In this document: positions 1 to 12,341 of the stretch, piece after piece
Layout: each line of letters opens with the position of its first letter
How positions within the stretch are numbered: the stretch's first letter is position 1
DNA from: Betaproteobacteria bacterium
Lineage (GTDB): Bacteria; Pseudomonadota; Gammaproteobacteria; Burkholderiales; SG8-39
Assembly (NCBI GenBank): GCA_947479645.1
Contig: CANKAJ010000002.1
Location: 400-64,399 of the forward strand
Direction of reading: 5' to 3'
Length of the DNA: 64,000 nt
Notes under the pieces: generated by a model
Databases searched by the model: none
What the model was told of the DNA's origin: nothing
Seen by the model: the letters and a program-made list of their open reading frames with translations, nothing else
Made by a program: the position numbers and the translations under genes

Positions 1-202
1 TCTGATTGATAAGGTATTGAGTTCTACCCAGTTTCCAACACTAATTGGCCAATAGAGTGCCAAGGCTATGTAAGAAGTACCTGTCAGTGGATACATTGAC
101 ATTTCGGATTTCCAAGGACTTGATGTTCTGAAGTTATGGCGATAGCGGACGTAGTTACGCCAAATAACTTTTGCTCTAAATTAAAGTTGGATTCTGTGAG
201 CC

Positions 203-781
203 ATGGATTTATTCCTGTACTTGACGAAAAAACGATGGGTAAATGCATGGATAAACGGGGGTGAGATCCCTATATCGTTGGTAAGTTCCTACTTGAGCCC
301 AATTCGCTCCGGCACAAAAACTCCCGATGAGAACCTGATCAATGATATGAATATAGATATCCAGCAGCTGTTCCCCTTGATTAGTATTGGAGAAGGCGGC
401 GGCCTACGAAATGCCAACTTCCAAAACAATTATGTTAACGGTCATCTGTTGCCTGAAGTACAGGATGGTAACTACTTCCACGAAGATGGCCTGATCTTGT
501 CCTTTTCACTCCAACAAAGCAGAGAGATTGCGGTGCGGATGGGTAAGGAATCTTGCGTTAAGATTCAAGACATCAATTATTTAAAGCTATGCGTAGATAA
601 TCAGCTCGGACTAAACGGCATACTCCGAGAGTGTGAGTACACGGATGGGCCAAACAGAAATCACTTCCTCAAGTCGGTAGCTGACTCATGGCAACAAGAA
701 CTCCGAATATTTTGGCCCGGAAGCATTAAAAAATCTGTTGTGCTGCCTAGTGGTATTGCAGAGCCAGTAAGCTTGGAATGA
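203..781 (+). CDS. hypothetical protein, 192 aa, soluble; weak DUF2971-like pattern
   Basis: ATG ORF inside the low-GC islet. No signal peptide or hydrophobic span. LFLYLTKKRWVNAWINGGEIPI ... GLILSFS ... SWQQELRIFW loosely recalls DUF2971-type proteins (from memory, not verifiable here). No clear SD. Confidence 0.45.
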   Translation: MDLFLYLTKKRWVNAWINGGEIPISLVSSYLSPIRSGTKTPDENLINDMNIDIQQLFPLISIGEGGGLRNANFQNNYVNGHLLPEVQDGNYFHEDGLILSFSLQQSREIAVRMGKESCVKIQDINYLKLCVDNQLGLNGILRECEYTDGPNRNHFLKSVADSWQQELRIFWPGSIKKSVVLPSGIAEPVSLE

Positions 782-1038
782 TGAACGAATTGCAAGTTTT
801 CATGGTGGTGTTTTTCTTTTGTCACGGCGCGTGACCTGGGCGCGTAATTGACCATGTAATTCTGTGATGTGCTGGCAGCTCTGATACCCCAAGCGATATG
901 TAGTGGCAGAAAGTGCAGCATGAATAAGTTCGAATGTGGTGTTCTTGATCCTAATTGACCATAGATAGGGGCTAACGTATAGTCATTCGGATGCTCTAGT
1001 GCCGAGTAATCCCTCACTTTGGATTACAGGTAGCATGC

Positions 1039-2343
1039 GTGGAGATCATAGAAAGGTGCGCAAGGGTGGTTCAGAAATCCTACAGGAAGAAGGTGAAGCC
1101 AGGGCTGTATCCGATCGAGATATTACAGATTGATGTTGCTGGCTCAAGCACGTCGCTGTATTCAAAAGTAAGTCCACAAGATAAGTCAAAAGCAGCACAG
1201 CTTTTCAGGGATTTTTTTAAGGGGATTTGTTTAAGTGCGGGTGGCCGCATGCATGGTGAATGGGTCGGTGATGGGGGGTGTGCGTTTTTCCCTAGTTCAA
1301 GCGACGAAGAAATCGGGAATTCTGTGATTGCCGCGAAGGAAATCCTTGATAAATTGCGCTATCAAAATATTGAAACCGCTACGGCAATCGGCAGAACAGA
1401 ATTTCCCCGAAGGATTCGATTATCAGCACATCGCGGTGAAATATATATTTCAGGTAAAGGCGATGGCGTAGACGCGGCAGAGTCAAAGCATTTCGATCAC
1501 TTTAAAAAATATGAAAGGCGATTTGCGCCAAATCCTGATGAGTTTTTTATCACTGACGGGCTATTCAAGGTCTTGCCAGGAGAGTCACAGTCTGAATTTG
1601 AGCACTTCAGAAATATCAAAGCTGGAGCGATTTCGACAGGGCTCTACAGACTAAAAGCAGCACCCAAGCCTCGCACAGAAAATATCTTTAGGTTGGGAGA
1701 CAAGCTTAAGAGCATGTCCCAAAGCGATTGGGAGTACCTACGAACACAAATTTATGCGCATTATGTGAATGTTGCTGCCCGAAATAGGATTACAAAAGGT
1801 CTTATTTCCCATTTGCGTGGGACACCCAGGAAGGGAGCTCGACGGATCTCCGGTGAAGTCCTGCTAGATCTGACCTTGGAAGCGTTAGCGGGATATCTTA
1901 AGATTGCCTTTCCTACTCGGCGCATACGTGTGAGCTATTGGCGTCCAATTACAAAATCATTGATCGCAATGGTTGCGTATAAATATCCAGATGGTGAAAT
2001 GACAAACCCATCTAATCGGAAAATCTCCTTGAAAGACCGTAGCTTCAAAGTTTGTAAGTGCTTTGCGGATGCTGAACCTGTAGTTACGCCTTCCGTCGTT
2101 GCAGCACGTCTTGCGGGGAATTGGTACGACTTTGACGCAAAGCAAAAGGTAAATGGCCGGGCGTTGATGTCTGCACTTCAGCTCCCAATCTACGTTGAAA
2201 CTGACACCGGGACAAAGGAGGTGAAGGGCGTACTTTCGCTTGATTCAAATCAGTCCGACGTATTCCTGCCCCAGGAAGTTAGCTTGTGGCGGGATGAATT
2301 GGTTGGATTTATGGCAAATTTGGCACTAGCAGAGAGTTTGTAA
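1039..2343 (+). CDS. class III nucleotidyl-cyclase-like (palm) domain fused to a C-terminal GAF-like domain, 434 aa
   Basis: GTG start is uncertain; in-frame GTGs also at 1069 and 1093. Residues ~25-210 carry cyclase-like motifs: ILQIDVAGSSTSL (first metal Asp, cf. DxxG[FS]T), GGRMHGEWVGDGGCAFF (second Asp, cf. GD), RIRLSAHRGEIYISG (cf. RIGIHxG). Residues ~270-430 show a GAF-like pattern: IRVSYWRP...MSALQLPIYVE...KEVKGVLSLDSNQSDVF...LVGFMANLALAES. Confidence 0.6.
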   Translation: MEIIERCARVVQKSYRKKVKPGLYPIEILQIDVAGSSTSLYSKVSPQDKSKAAQLFRDFFKGICLSAGGRMHGEWVGDGGCAFFPSSSDEEIGNSVIAAKEILDKLRYQNIETATAIGRTEFPRRIRLSAHRGEIYISGKGDGVDAAESKHFDHFKKYERRFAPNPDEFFITDGLFKVLPGESQSEFEHFRNIKAGAISTGLYRLKAAPKPRTENIFRLGDKLKSMSQSDWEYLRTQIYAHYVNVAARNRITKGLISHLRGTPRKGARRISGEVLLDLTLEALAGYLKIAFPTRRIRVSYWRPITKSLIAMVAYKYPDGEMTNPSNRKISLKDRSFKVCKCFADAEPVVTPSVVAARLAGNWYDFDAKQKVNGRALMSALQLPIYVETDTGTKEVKGVLSLDSNQSDVFLPQEVSLWRDELVGFMANLALAESL

Positions 2344-2412
2344 GCTAGTGAACTATGTCACGTGGGTATTTTGCTGGAAGCTGTATAATTCGCGGTCGAA
2401 AAGGGAGTTCTT

Positions 2413-2604
2413 ATGTCTGTGGTTCGGCAAAAGAGAGCAAAAGTTACGGCGTCGGCTACCAAACAAGCGGCAACAGAGCAGGAAATTCGGAGTAGGGCTG
2501 ATTATTCCCTTGCGGTACTTGGGATGGCGTTTGTACGCAATGGTTCTGGTCGGTTCCTAAATATTCGTGCTCATGGAGATCGCCTGATGAAGAAGGTGGC
2601 CTAG
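2413..2604 (+). CDS. small basic hypothetical protein, 63 aa
   Basis: ATG preceded by a strong SD (AAGGGAG, 2400-2406, 6 nt spacer). Lies 70 nt after the cyclase/GAF gene on the same strand. No recognisable motif. Confidence 0.35.
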   Translation: MSVVRQKRAKVTASATKQAATEQEIRSRADYSLAVLGMAFVRNGSGRFLNIRAHGDRLMKKVA

Positions 2605-2903
2605 GTGTAGCAGCATGATTTCATGCGTGCCTGCATGAATTGCATTTGCCGTTTGCGTTGATCGATTTCCCCCGCAGTTGGTGGTTCCCTCACCTAACCT
2701 GCAAAATACGACTGTGGTGCCATTCTTTGACAGCCGTATGCTATGTTTACGTTGGAGTCCAGTGTGGGGGCGTCAATCGCGATTTCCATTAGCGGTTGGT
2801 GACCCAAACTAGTGACCCAAATGCGGCAAATAATCTCAATATTCACCGTATTTAATGCGGAGAATATATTGCCATTGCGGGGATAAACCCGCATAATCAC
2901 CGC

Positions 2904-4037
2904 ATGAAAAGCGGAGAAAAGATTTACATCTGGCAACAGCAGGACTGGCCGCACTGGCGCTATGACATTCAGCGGTTGATGGGCCTGCTCGGCCAGGTTC
3001 ATCGTGCACAGGGTAATTTGCTGGGCCGGATGCAGACCTTGGGTCTGGGGCTGCGCGAGCAGGCCACCTTGCAGGTATTGACCGAGGACGTGGTCAAGAC
3101 CAGCGAGATCGAAGGCGAACATCTCAACCCCGACGCTGTTCGCTCCTCGATTGCCCGTCGTCTGGGCGTGGATATCGGATCCCTGGCCCCGTCCGATCGA
3201 CACGTCGATGGCGTCGTGGAAATGGTGATGGATGCAACCGCGAATCATCATCTGGCGCTGACGCCGGAGCGATTGTTTGGATGGCATGCCGCGCTATTTC
3301 CAACCGGCTACAGTGGTATGGTCCCAATTCCCACTGGAAGTTGGCGCGATGATGCGACCGGCCCGATGCAAGTGGTGTCCGGTCCGGTTGGCCGGCAGAA
3401 AGTGCATTTCGAAGCGCCTCCCGCCAATTCGCTGAATGCCGAAATGTCGGCCCTGTTGTCGTGGTTCAACGTCGACCAGCATGATGATCCGCTGGTCAAG
3501 GCAGGCCTCGCCCATCTCTGGTTCGTCACCATCCATCCGTTCGACGATGGCAACGGTCGTATCGCACGGGCAGTCGGGGATATGGCACTGGCTCGTGTTG
3601 ATCAATCACCGCAGCGGTTTTACAGCCTGTCGGCGCAAATCCAGCGTGAACGAAAGGACTATTACGACATGCTTGAGCGCACCCAGAAGGGTTCGCTTGA
3701 CGTGACGGACTGGCTTGAATGGTTCCTGGGTTGCCTGTTGCGCACGATGCAGGGCGCCGAGGGGACCTTGTCTGCCGTTCTGGCCAAGGCGAATTTCTGG
3801 CAGCGCTGGGCCGGCACGCCGATGAACGAGAGGCAGATCAAGTTGCTGAACCGTCTGCTTGATGGATTCGAGGGAAAACTCACCAGCAGCAAGTGGGCTG
3901 CCATTGCCAAGTATTCGCCCGATACCGCGCTGCGTGACATCAATGAGTTGGTGTCGCTCGGTGTTTTGACGAAGGCGCCGGGGGGCGGCCGCAGTACTGC
4001 GTACGAGCTTATTGGCTATAATTTCCAGCAACAGTGA
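2904..4037 (+). CDS. Fic family protein (AMPylase-type fold), class II auto-inhibited architecture
   Basis: HPFDDGNGRIARA matches the Fic motif HxFx[DE]GNGRxxR. TSEIEG upstream matches the inhibitory [ST]xxxE[GN] motif. N-terminal IWQQQDWPHWRYD is DUF4172-type. The C-terminal tail is wHTH-like. Confidence 0.9.
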   Translation: MKSGEKIYIWQQQDWPHWRYDIQRLMGLLGQVHRAQGNLLGRMQTLGLGLREQATLQVLTEDVVKTSEIEGEHLNPDAVRSSIARRLGVDIGSLAPSDRHVDGVVEMVMDATANHHLALTPERLFGWHAALFPTGYSGMVPIPTGSWRDDATGPMQVVSGPVGRQKVHFEAPPANSLNAEMSALLSWFNVDQHDDPLVKAGLAHLWFVTIHPFDDGNGRIARAVGDMALARVDQSPQRFYSLSAQIQRERKDYYDMLERTQKGSLDVTDWLEWFLGCLLRTMQGAEGTLSAVLAKANFWQRWAGTPMNERQIKLLNRLLDGFEGKLTSSKWAAIAKYSPDTALRDINELVSLGVLTKAPGGGRSTAYELIGYNFQQQ

Positions 4038-4083
4038 TAACACCCGTACGTCCAAAAATATCGTGATCAATCAGGGGAAGCGC

Positions 4084-5097
4084 ATGTTGCACGTCGAGCC
4101 AGTCAAGCACTCCATCACAAGAAATTGGTCCGGCAAATTCCTTACCGGCGTTGGATTGTTTGTTGCGATCTTGCCGTCAATTGCACTTGCTCAAGCTTAC
4201 CCGGCAAAGCTCGTCAAGATGACCGTGCCTTTCTCGGCCGGCGGCAGCATAGACCTGCTTGGTCGGCTCGTCGGCAAAAAAATGGAGGAGGGCCTAGGGG
4301 CTACGGTTGTCATCGAGAACAAGGGAGGCGGTGGCGGAACAATCGGAACCAAGGCAGTTCTTGATTCCAGGCCGGACGGCTCCAGCATCGCCATTGTTTC
4401 ACCTGGGCCCACGACCGTCGCAGCGGTTCTTGACCCAACCTTGCAATACAACATTACCAAGGATATTACTTATATCGTTGCCCTGGCGAGCTATGTGCCT
4501 GCGGTGGTGGCGGGGCTTCAGGTGCCGGGACGGACGCTGAGGGAATTCATCGATTATGCGAAAAAGAACCCGGGGAAACTGACATTTGGCAGCGCCGGTG
4601 TCGGTTCCAGCACCCACATCCTGGGAGAATTGTTCGTCAGGGCCGCCGGCGTTGACATCATTCATGTGCCGTTCAAAGGGGGTTCTGGCGGGATTCAGGA
4701 TGTGCTGGGCGGCCACATTTCACTGATGATTACGAGTCTGGTTGCGGCCCAGCCCTTGATCAATTCGGGCAAGGTTAAAGCGTTTGCAGCGTTTGACAAG
4801 GAACGCTATCCCACTTTCCCGACGGTGCCTGCAGTGACAGAGGACATGCCGAGCTTTGATCCTCCCATCATCTGGTACGGCCTGATCGGCCCGGCCGGGA
4901 TGCCGGCGACGATTACGGATCGTCTGAACCGCGAAGCCATCAAGGCGCTGGCTTCGGCCGAAGTCCAAAAGGAAATCATCAGCGGTGCCTACAAAGTCAT
5001 CGGCGGAAGTCCCAGGGACTTTCAGGAACTGATCCGCAAGGATGCAACTGTTCTGGGTGATATTGTCCGGGCAGCGAAGATTACGCTCGAAAAGTAA
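4084..5097 (+). CDS. Bug/TctC-family periplasmic substrate-binding protein
   Basis: Signal peptide, then AQAYPAKLVKMTVPFSAGGS, GGGGTIG, GSAGVGSSTHI and HVPFKGG. Start moved to ATG 4084 (the ORF track extends to 4012, overlapping fic). Confidence 0.9.
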   Translation: MLHVEPVKHSITRNWSGKFLTGVGLFVAILPSIALAQAYPAKLVKMTVPFSAGGSIDLLGRLVGKKMEEGLGATVVIENKGGGGGTIGTKAVLDSRPDGSSIAIVSPGPTTVAAVLDPTLQYNITKDITYIVALASYVPAVVAGLQVPGRTLREFIDYAKKNPGKLTFGSAGVGSSTHILGELFVRAAGVDIIHVPFKGGSGGIQDVLGGHISLMITSLVAAQPLINSGKVKAFAAFDKERYPTFPTVPAVTEDMPSFDPPIIWYGLIGPAGMPATITDRLNREAIKALASAEVQKEIISGAYKVIGGSPRDFQELIRKDATVLGDIVRAAKITLEK

Positions 5098-11558: not shown

Positions 11559-12341
11559 ATGAAGTCCACTGAAGTTAAAACAGTCGCGGCTGTCGAACGT
11601 GCCTTCTCCATATTGGAAGCCTTTCGGGCGGGTGATGTTTTCCTGTCTTTATCCGAACTGTCAAATCGTACCAAGCTGTACAAGAGCACCATACTTCGCC
11701 TGTCGCAAACGCTGGAGAGGCTCGGATATATTGCCCGCAATACGGGTGGTGAATACCACATCGGTCCGGCAGTATTCCGCTTGGGGGGCTTGTATCAGGC
11801 GGCAATGAAACCGGAAGATGTCATCATGCCGGTGCTCAGAAGGCTGGTTGAATTGACCAATGAAAGTGCCGGATTCCATATCCGCTTTGGTGACAAGCGG
11901 CTATGTTTGTACCGAGTGGATTCGCCGCACCCGCTTCGGGATCATTTCAAGCCAGGGGATGCCTTGCCGCTTGAGCGTGGTGCAGGCGGAAAGGTACTGA
12001 CCTCCTTCGGCAAACCATTGAAGCAGCAGTTTGCAGATTTGCGGACCAAGGTGGCAATCAGTGCGTCCGGGGAAATCGCCCCGGATATGGCGGGAGTGGC
12101 GTGCCCGGTATTTGATAATACGGGCGATCTGGTTGGCGCGTTGACATTGAGCGGGCCCGTTACGCGATTTAGCAAGCGAACTGTGCCAAAGTTTGAATAT
12201 TGCCTGCTTGAGGCTGCACGCGAAGTGACCGAGGCGCTGGGTGGAGATGTGCAGCCCTTTGAGAAAAGGCTCATTCAGATGGCATCCAAAACAATGGCAG
12301 GGCGGGGAACAACGCGAGGCAGGACCGCCAGGCGTCGGTAG
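11559..12341 (+). CDS. IclR-family transcriptional regulator
   Basis: AVERAFSILEAF...LSLSELSNRTKLYKSTILRLSQTLERLGYI (wHTH) plus a C-terminal effector domain. Start moved to ATG 11559; the upstream extension has no family support. Confidence 0.85.
   Translation: MKSTEVKTVAAVERAFSILEAFRAGDVFLSLSELSNRTKLYKSTILRLSQTLERLGYIARNTGGEYHIGPAVFRLGGLYQAAMKPEDVIMPVLRRLVELTNESAGFHIRFGDKRLCLYRVDSPHPLRDHFKPGDALPLERGAGGKVLTSFGKPLKQQFADLRTKVAISASGEIAPDMAGVACPVFDNTGDLVGALTLSGPVTRFSKRTVPKFEYCLLEAAREVTEALGGDVQPFEKRLIQMASKTMAGRGTTRGRTARRR

Follow-up and report, generated by a model that had tools for sequence, protein, structure and literature searches.

The first 2.65 kb of the window, a 64,000-nt stretch of contig CANKAJ010000002.1 from a Betaproteobacteria bacterium of the Burkholderiales, encode a putative cyclic-nucleotide module of undescribed architecture. 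The module consists of a predicted class III nucleotidyl-cyclase-like domain fused to a GAF domain (the cyclase-GAF protein) and a basic micro-protein encoded directly downstream (orf63). These two genes, and a third gene upstream of them (orf192), represent three families that are not annotated in current databases. The anatomy of the two-gene unit is secure, and from it we infer a function and a role for the small protein. In our estimate the chances are about even that the pair is a conflict module based on cyclic nucleoside monophosphates (cNMPs), either abortive-infection/defence-like or toxin-antitoxin-like. The features of the unit are as follows.

955 to 983, forward strand: candidate sigma-70-like promoter of the cyclase-GAF operon, TTGACC-17-TATAGT, with 10/12 consensus matches
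1039 to 2343, forward strand: cyclase-GAF gene, 434 amino acids from the GTG at 1039, more likely 416 amino acids from the GTG at 1093
1093 to 1683 (residues 19-215), forward strand: class III nucleotidyl-cyclase-like catalytic domain, placed by Foldseek and a broadened family profile (profile A4)
1720 to 1821 (residues 228-261), forward strand: long linker helix of 34 residues, from the AlphaFold2 secondary structure
1852 to 2343 (residues 272-434), forward strand: C-terminal GAF domain, from the AlphaFold2 model and Foldseek
2401 to 2407, forward strand: Shine-Dalgarno sequence AAGGGAG, read from the sequence
2413 to 2604, forward strand: orf63, 63 amino acids
2620 to 2649, forward strand: candidate terminator-like hairpin with a T-rich tail at the end of the operon, from a consensus scan

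Promoter-like and terminator-like sites are no more frequent in this region than in shuffled sequence, and those listed are candidates only.

The original prediction had joined the 192-, 434- and 63-amino-acid genes into one three-gene cassette. A search for co-occurrence of the trio recovered only the pair formed by the last two. A homologue of orf63 lies directly downstream of the large gene and on the same strand in 16/16 independent cyclase-GAF loci with downstream DNA (tblastn; intergenic gap roughly 15-100 nt), but orf192 is found at none of the other loci, and the trio as a single cassette had to be given up. Because orf63 follows in all 16 loci and both orf192 and fic (the next gene downstream in the window) are absent from all other cyclase-GAF loci, the conserved unit is a self-contained two-gene operon spanning about 955-2649. 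Membership of fic in the unit was rejected: this gene has its own promoter-like site and host-like G+C content, and its homology to relatives is confined to 2822-4009 among different neighbours.

The 416-amino-acid form of the large protein, starting at 1093, is the product called in public assemblies. We identified 18 close homologues. Clustering at 50% identity gave about 46 clusters with E ≤ 1e-30, and an exhaustive search for remote relatives was used to broaden the family profile (profile A4). An AlphaFold2 model from the 18-sequence alignment has a predicted local distance difference test score (pLDDT) of 87.2 and a predicted template-modelling score (pTM) of 0.83, with residues 1-16 disordered. 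In this model the N-terminal half is predicted to adopt a divergent class III nucleotidyl-cyclase fold. In a Foldseek search of the PDB, class III adenylyl or guanylyl cyclase (AC/GC) catalytic domains fill all of the first 50 places (E 3e-9 to 1e-5; template-modelling score 0.65-0.83 normalised to the target), among them Cya2, CyaC, CyaB, Rv1900c and Ma1120, and a Pycsar cytidylate cyclase at rank 42. The unbroadened family profile gave weak PDB matches over the first ~90 residues (2w01 at 7e-4; Pycsar 8jsz, 7r65 and 8jsf), and profile A4 matched Ma1120 (2.4e-11) and 3mr7 (4.6e-11) over the whole domain (profile positions 9-180). The class III cyclase-like domain that the original prediction had read from this protein is thus borne out by model, fold search and profile alike. 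Family models miss it: Pfam has no match to the window protein at E ≤ 1, Guanylate_cyc (PF00211) included, and none of the three islet proteins has a match in Pfam, NCBIfam, PADLOC or PHROGs.

Both class III hallmarks are present, namely a beta-alpha-beta-beta-alpha-beta palm fold and two metal-binding Asp residues, one on beta1 (D32, in IDVAGS) and one in the beta2-beta3 turn (D78, in GDGG), which align with those of Cya2, Ma1120 and 3mr7. D32, D78, the GDGG loop, R127 and H131 are invariant in 22/22 representative clusters. The N-x-x-x-R transition-state signature of class III cyclases was not found. By alignment with 3mr7, the canonical Asn and Arg positions are occupied by D153 (20/22 clusters) and K157 (19/22), replacements that are conservative yet non-canonical. 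The alpha4 motif, canonically N-x-x-A-R-x-E, reads N-x-F-[IL]-K-x-E in the wider superfamily and D153-x-F-x-K157-x-E159 in the cyclase-GAF family. Judging by these residues, the metal centre of the cyclase is intact but its transition-state pair is substituted.

Inactive cNMP-cyclase domains are described in the vWA-MoxR conflict systems (PMC7159879), and the substitutions at both transition-state positions, the unconserved specificity position and the extreme conservation of the orf63 core could all be explained if the palm were a catalytically dead pseudo-cyclase. It would then only bind nucleotide as a sensor, and the real activity would reside in the micro-protein or the GAF domain; Kaur et al. 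(2020) put forward such a role for the inactive domains of the vWA-MoxR systems. We consider this quite unlikely, as metal ligands are usually the first to be lost in dead enzymes and here the Asp pair is invariant, together with the GDGG loop, R127 and H131. Further, Lys is a conservative replacement for Arg that is common to the whole divergent superfamily (which mostly keeps Asn), and the GAF domain is without the conserved Cys set of the fRMsr enzymes.

A large superfamily of divergent class III cyclase domains was also identified (proteins P0144-P0241), with the motifs QVDI.GHS, W.GDGG and F.N.F.K.ER and with Arg replaced by Lys. The C-terminal regions in this superfamily include NUDIX (P0149, P0159), TPR (P0154), predicted transmembrane (P0144, P0150) and GAF segments. 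Pfam and PADLOC miss nearly all of its members.

The linker helix of the cyclase-GAF protein contains the best-conserved motif of the whole protein, NVAARNxITKGL. W231, Y233, I238, A247, N249, I251 and T252 are invariant in the family alignment (A1) and are kept in distant relatives. Residues 222-434 modelled alone reach a pLDDT of 91.9 and a pTM of 0.87, and the 50 best Foldseek PDB matches of the C-terminal half are all GAF domains (from fRMsr, YKG9, PDE6, phytochromes and sensor kinases, for example; E 5e-7 to 6e-5), in agreement with the C-terminal GAF-like domain proposed at the outset. The modelled fold is the GAF type, in which helices flank an antiparallel sheet of six strands. By sequence alone, the C-terminal half found nothing in the PDB, and Pfam detects GAF in 1/16 family members (GAF E = 0.007; GAF_2 0.055), with no match for the window protein. 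A role as an fRMsr-type enzyme, suggested by the top of the Foldseek list, was rejected: the sole conserved Cys (C339) is restricted to the nearest subclade, and all others have V, G or A at this position. The invariant polar residues R327, S378, Q381, D402 and E413 suggest a candidate conserved ligand site in the GAF domain.

The orf63 protein has about 60 amino acids and a near-invariant helix-plus-hairpin core. Its description as a basic 63-amino-acid reading frame with a strong Shine-Dalgarno sequence stands (isoelectric point 11.6; AAGGGAG 5 nt before the ATG). The core of 32 residues reads IR.RA.YSLA[IV]LG.AF[VI]RNGSGRFLNIR, and A29, S32, A34, F40 and N43-G44-S45-G46 are invariant in the family. 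The N-terminal tail varies between the two subclades, being basic in one and acidic in the second. Within the 32 core codons there are 8-21 synonymous versus 6-11 nonsynonymous differences; since synonymous changes outnumber nonsynonymous ones, orf63 is a real protein under purifying selection. Conservation as an RNA or DNA element was rejected because synonymous changes dominate and an Rfam scan of window 1-3000 returned no match. Pairwise identities of orf63 and the cyclase-GAF protein are correlated (Mantel r = 0.75, p = 2e-4), and the two proteins co-evolve. A profile search recovered at least 155 orf63 clusters, all of 48-137 amino acids and with no fusions. No match to the family was found in Pfam, PADLOC or the PDB, and the protein contains no transmembrane segment (maximum Kyte-Doolittle 19-mer 0.92).

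A homologue of orf63 without the large gene was identified at two of the sampled loci, intact at L029 and C-terminally broken at L030, whereas the large gene without its small partner was never seen among loci with downstream DNA. This asymmetry is the pattern expected if the small partner neutralises the large one.

The intact orphan (L029, 5001-5162) is flanked by murJ and a lepA-like gene in a metagenome-assembled genome (MAG) of Candidatus Giovannonibacteria (candidate phyla radiation, CPR), and its core is 78% identical to that of the window copy. The broken orphan (L030, 5001-5177) comes from another genome and has a tyrosine integrase nearby.

If the pair is a conflict module, the cyclase dimer would be the output enzyme and would make a cyclic mononucleotide. 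The fused GAF domain would act as a built-in ligand sensor, either for a trigger or for the enzyme's own cNMP product. Binding of its own product would lead to feed-forward activation, as is established for cyanobacterial CyaB1. Because orphan small genes exist and orphan large genes do not, orf63 would be an inhibitor, that is, a stoichiometric partner whose most probable role is to keep the enzyme inactive until it is removed by a trigger. The analogy is to PDE6, in which P-gamma, a small and basic inhibitory subunit, acts as a clamp on the GAF and catalytic domains. The PDE6 GAF is among the Foldseek matches, but orf63 has no sequence similarity to P-gamma and the comparison is by analogy only. 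After release of the enzyme, growth arrest could result from runaway consumption of nucleoside triphosphates (NTPs) or from the effects of cNMP on host targets, with no dedicated effector protein. Taken jointly, these specific roles (cyclase output, GAF sensing in cis and an inhibitory micro-protein clamp) are tentative and somewhat doubtful. We regard as unlikely the most specific form of the idea, an effector-less cNMP suicide switch in which the GAF domain senses, the cyclase executes by runaway NTP-to-cNMP conversion, and the 60-residue clamp is removed by phage infection. If this form were true, abortive infection would gain a new mechanistic class that differs from Pycsar, CBASS and Thoeris, and a large branch of class III cyclases that lacks annotation would receive its first function.

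The genomic contexts show that the pair is a horizontally mobile unit. In 13/13 loci its A+T content exceeds that of the flanks (by 0.03 to 0.15), the neighbouring genes change from genome to genome, and the hosts include Burkholderiales, Myxococcales and Rhizomicrobium MAGs. Fixation at a conserved core-genome locus would have contradicted the original prediction; a different insertion site was found in each genome. The contexts include the following.

L003: large serine recombinase, pair, genes of an integrative and conjugative element; capP-like M78 peptidase
L005: capP-like M78 peptidase and Vsr, pair, PDC-S41 (3.8e-232); restriction-modification control protein
L006: pair, PIN/MazE
L007: lpdA-rpiA, pair, argA
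L008: groEL, pair
L009: PycTM, PycC-like gene, PycC (3.8e-72) and the pair in one ~4 kb low-GC islet downstream of groEL
L012: DUF6765, pair, tRNA-Met, kdsDC
L014: rpsD, pair, tRNA-Leu
L031: pair flanked by a GGDEF protein and a response regulator

The tRNA genes of L012 and L014 lie ~300 nt downstream of the pair, and the serine recombinase of L003 is adjacent to it. Defence, toxin-antitoxin (TA) or mobile genetic element genes occur within 5 kb in roughly half of the ~10 independent contexts. Placement of the pair in defence islands, as originally proposed, therefore holds for about half of the independent loci, but the rest have housekeeping genes only. The more general expectation of a foreign, mobile and partly defence-associated setting agrees with the nearby recombinase, tRNAs and defence genes and with an IS630-family transposase close to the window copy.

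In both L008 (19-2874) and L009 (5743-11463) the pair lies just downstream of groEL. The two groEL genes share 73% nucleotide identity, the two pairs are from different subclades, and Pycsar genes are present at the site in L009 only. Because the pairs belong to different subclades, the comparison suggests that the groEL-downstream site is an insertion hotspot with recurrent insertion rather than vertical inheritance.

Half of the loci lie among housekeeping genes, and at L031 the neighbours are signalling proteins. Such settings would suit an ordinary GAF-regulated signalling cyclase that serves host cAMP/cGMP (cyclic AMP or cyclic GMP) regulation, via CRP-type receptors for example, with orf63 as a minor regulatory subunit and no conflict role. 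Cyclase and GAF domains are classic signalling modules, and the closest solved relatives are housekeeping-type ACs (Ma1120, CyaB, Cya2) and not Pycsar enzymes. We nevertheless find this explanation improbable, given the sporadic occurrence of the pair across phyla, its G+C deviation at every one of the 13 loci, a new site in each genome and neighbours that include recombinase, tRNA and insertion sequence genes. At 90% identity the cyclase-GAF cluster has 1 member and the fic cluster has 124, and known signalling cyclases are not strictly paired with a micro-protein.

At L009 the pair is divergently oriented ~300 nt from PycC, within the same islet. This proximity, and the lack of an effector encoded in cis, raise the possibility that the pair generates an accessory or decoy signal in trans and would supply or buffer cNMP for effectors encoded elsewhere (e.g., PycTM) in a Panoptes-like manner, with orf63 tuning its activity. 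We consider this very unlikely because the arrangement occurs at a single independent locus, Pycsar genes are missing from the other loci, and at the equivalent groEL site of L008 the pair stands alone. A second Pycsar-adjacent locus, L034, was rejected as independent: it is 100% identical to L009, and the apparently truncated P0016 is a mis-called start.

The Pycsar locus of L009 (7469-9581, equal to L034 5274-7386) is directly upstream of the cyclase-GAF pair. It comprises PycTM and a weak PycC-like gene on the forward strand and, convergent with these, a strong PycC without its own effector on the reverse strand. A 47-nt direct repeat is present just downstream of the L009 pair (11761-11807 and 11856-11902).

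As had been claimed at first, no system described in PADLOC 2.0, Pfam, NCBIfam or the literature that was searched has this architecture; a search for publications that link cyclase and GAF domains with phage defence turned up no cyclase-GAF protein with orf63. The accompanying claim that no usual effector is present also holds, in that Pfam and PADLOC find no transmembrane, TIR, patatin, nuclease or cNMP-binding domain. Membership in Pycsar was rejected, there being no PycC-family cyclase and no cNMP-binding effector fused to a transmembrane or TIR domain. CBASS was likewise rejected, as the palm is of class III and not of the Pol-beta CD-NTase fold, and no PADLOC match was found.

By analogy, the proposed conflict module would work most like Pycsar among known systems. 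Both are small mobile operons built on a mononucleotide cyclase of class III fold and found in accessory or defence islets, and one locus of the pair is beside a genuine Pycsar. They differ in that profile A4 is nearer to AC/GC enzymes (2e-11) than to the solved PycC enzymes (1e-5 to 1e-3), and in that the cyclase is fused to a GAF domain and accompanied by a 60-residue partner instead of a cNMP-binding transmembrane or TIR effector. CyaB1/CyaB2 and PDE2/5/6 also combine GAF and a cyclic-nucleotide enzyme in one polypeptide. Unlike these, the window protein has the reverse order (cyclase, then GAF), lacks PAS or tandem GAF domains and is not detected by Pfam GAF or Guanylate_cyc, and the unit is mobile and sporadic.

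The pair also resembles type II TA or abortive-infection pairs with reversed gene order (higBA, hicAB). It is a compact combination of a large and a small gene, mobile, AT-rich relative to the host and near TA or defence genes, and it shows strict pairing and co-evolution, with the small partner sometimes an orphan. However, the putative toxin would be a 416-amino-acid cyclase-GAF protein, an architecture not described for any TA toxin, and orf63 has no recognisable DNA-binding or known antitoxin fold and a core far more conserved than that of typical antitoxins. Kaur, Burroughs, Iyer & Aravind (2020; PMC7159879) document signalling roles for cNMP cyclase and GAF domains in the conflict systems of prokaryotes. 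The vWA-MoxR (VMAP) systems are multi-component, with vWA, MoxR, VMAP and many effector domains, none of which were found here.

Several observations weigh against a conflict function for the pair. Five of the ~10 independent loci have housekeeping neighbours only, and neither the cyclase-GAF nor the orf63 protein was found in IMG/VR, INPHARED or PLSDB, a result that also led us to reject a phage or plasmid origin. No PADLOC model matches the module (PycC included, E ≤ 1). With Asp153 and Lys157 in place of Asn and Arg, cyclase activity or substrate may differ or be lost, and the purine-specifying position (D78 minus 4) carries no conserved residue. Identity within the orf63 core is 70-85%, versus 37-49% for the enzyme, which is unusual for a type II antitoxin. 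Such conservation of the core would also fit an effector role, or a protein that binds a conserved host target or the nucleotide itself.

The islet that carries the pair in the window is a mosaic of independent modules: an IS630 transposase (off the left edge), orf192, the two-gene operon and a separately mobile SoFic-like fic gene. Window 1-2650 has a G+C content of 45.7%, versus 57.3% in 2651-64000, and is the lowest in G+C of any 2650-nt stretch within the 64 kb. The original prediction had recognised the islet as compositionally foreign; its hand counts of G+C per 60-nt line (24, 30, 22 and 38) proved exact, as did the positions given for the three reading frames and the adjacent fic gene (203-781, 1039-2343, 2413-2604 and 2904-4037). 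It had also pointed to sequence beyond the left edge as a place to look for mobility genes. An identical metagenomic contig (L001) reaches 390 nt beyond that edge, and within this distance we identified the 3' end of an IS630-family transposase (L001 3-140, ~250-390 nt left of window position 1). This fragment is 80% identical to a Caballeronia copy and its best matches are all from Burkholderiales, which supports a mosaic mobile islet and a Burkholderiales host. No att-like repeats were found at module borders in window 1-4200.

The modules on either side of the operon are the following.

203 to 781, forward strand: orf192, 192 amino acids, an independent single-gene mobile module
2822 to 4037, forward strand: SoFic-like Fic module, with a promoter-like site at 2869-2897 and the coding sequence at 2904-4037

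The orf192 family comprises 78 homologues, all annotated as hypothetical, with 23 invariant residues. The protein has no match in Pfam, NCBIfam, PADLOC, PHROG or the PDB. Contexts of its homologues were taken from loci L022-L028. In draft Escherichia coli assemblies a homologue lies between antiterminator Q and the holin of lambdoid prophages, the slot of prophage morons. In Malikia a homologue adjoins DDE transposase and SIR2/DUF87 genes, and in Photobacterium it stands alone. The family was not found in INPHARED phages nor in complete E. coli genomes. We consider orf192 a candidate single-gene, prophage-borne exclusion or defence factor. A composite transposon of IS630 and orf192 was not supported, the Malikia DDE transposase being unrelated to the IS630 fragment.

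The fic gene starts 300 nt downstream of the cyclase-GAF pair and has a host-like G+C content of 58.6%. Its product contains Pfam DUF4172 (4e-34) and Fic (2e-16) domains and a C-terminal helix-turn-helix, and matches PADLOC SoFic over its full length (1.1e-43). Because the NCBIfam SoFic equivalog cut-off is missed (48 bits vs 550), its sequence places it as a member of the SoFic family rather than an orthologue. Relatives share 85% nucleotide identity over window 2822-4009 only, and their neighbouring genes are entirely different. The gene thus moves as a single-gene cassette, separate from the islet pair. Upstream of fic in relatives (L032/L033 1-9119) are genes for DUF6361, PLD-like, ResIII-helicase and AEP-primase/DEAD-helicase proteins. 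Because relatives carry this helicase, primase and PLD cargo there, the slot upstream of fic is a variable hotspot with defence-like cargo.

Should the cyclase-GAF and orf63 pair prove to be a conflict system, cyclic-mononucleotide immunity would reach past Pycsar to an architecture without a separate effector, and one would have to ask how growth can be stopped by a cyclase on its own or in combination with a micro-protein. The analysis also highlights three families that are unannotated in databases: the divergent class III cyclases, the ~60-amino-acid orf63 family (at least 155 clusters) and the orf192 family. All are compact and easily tested in E. coli.

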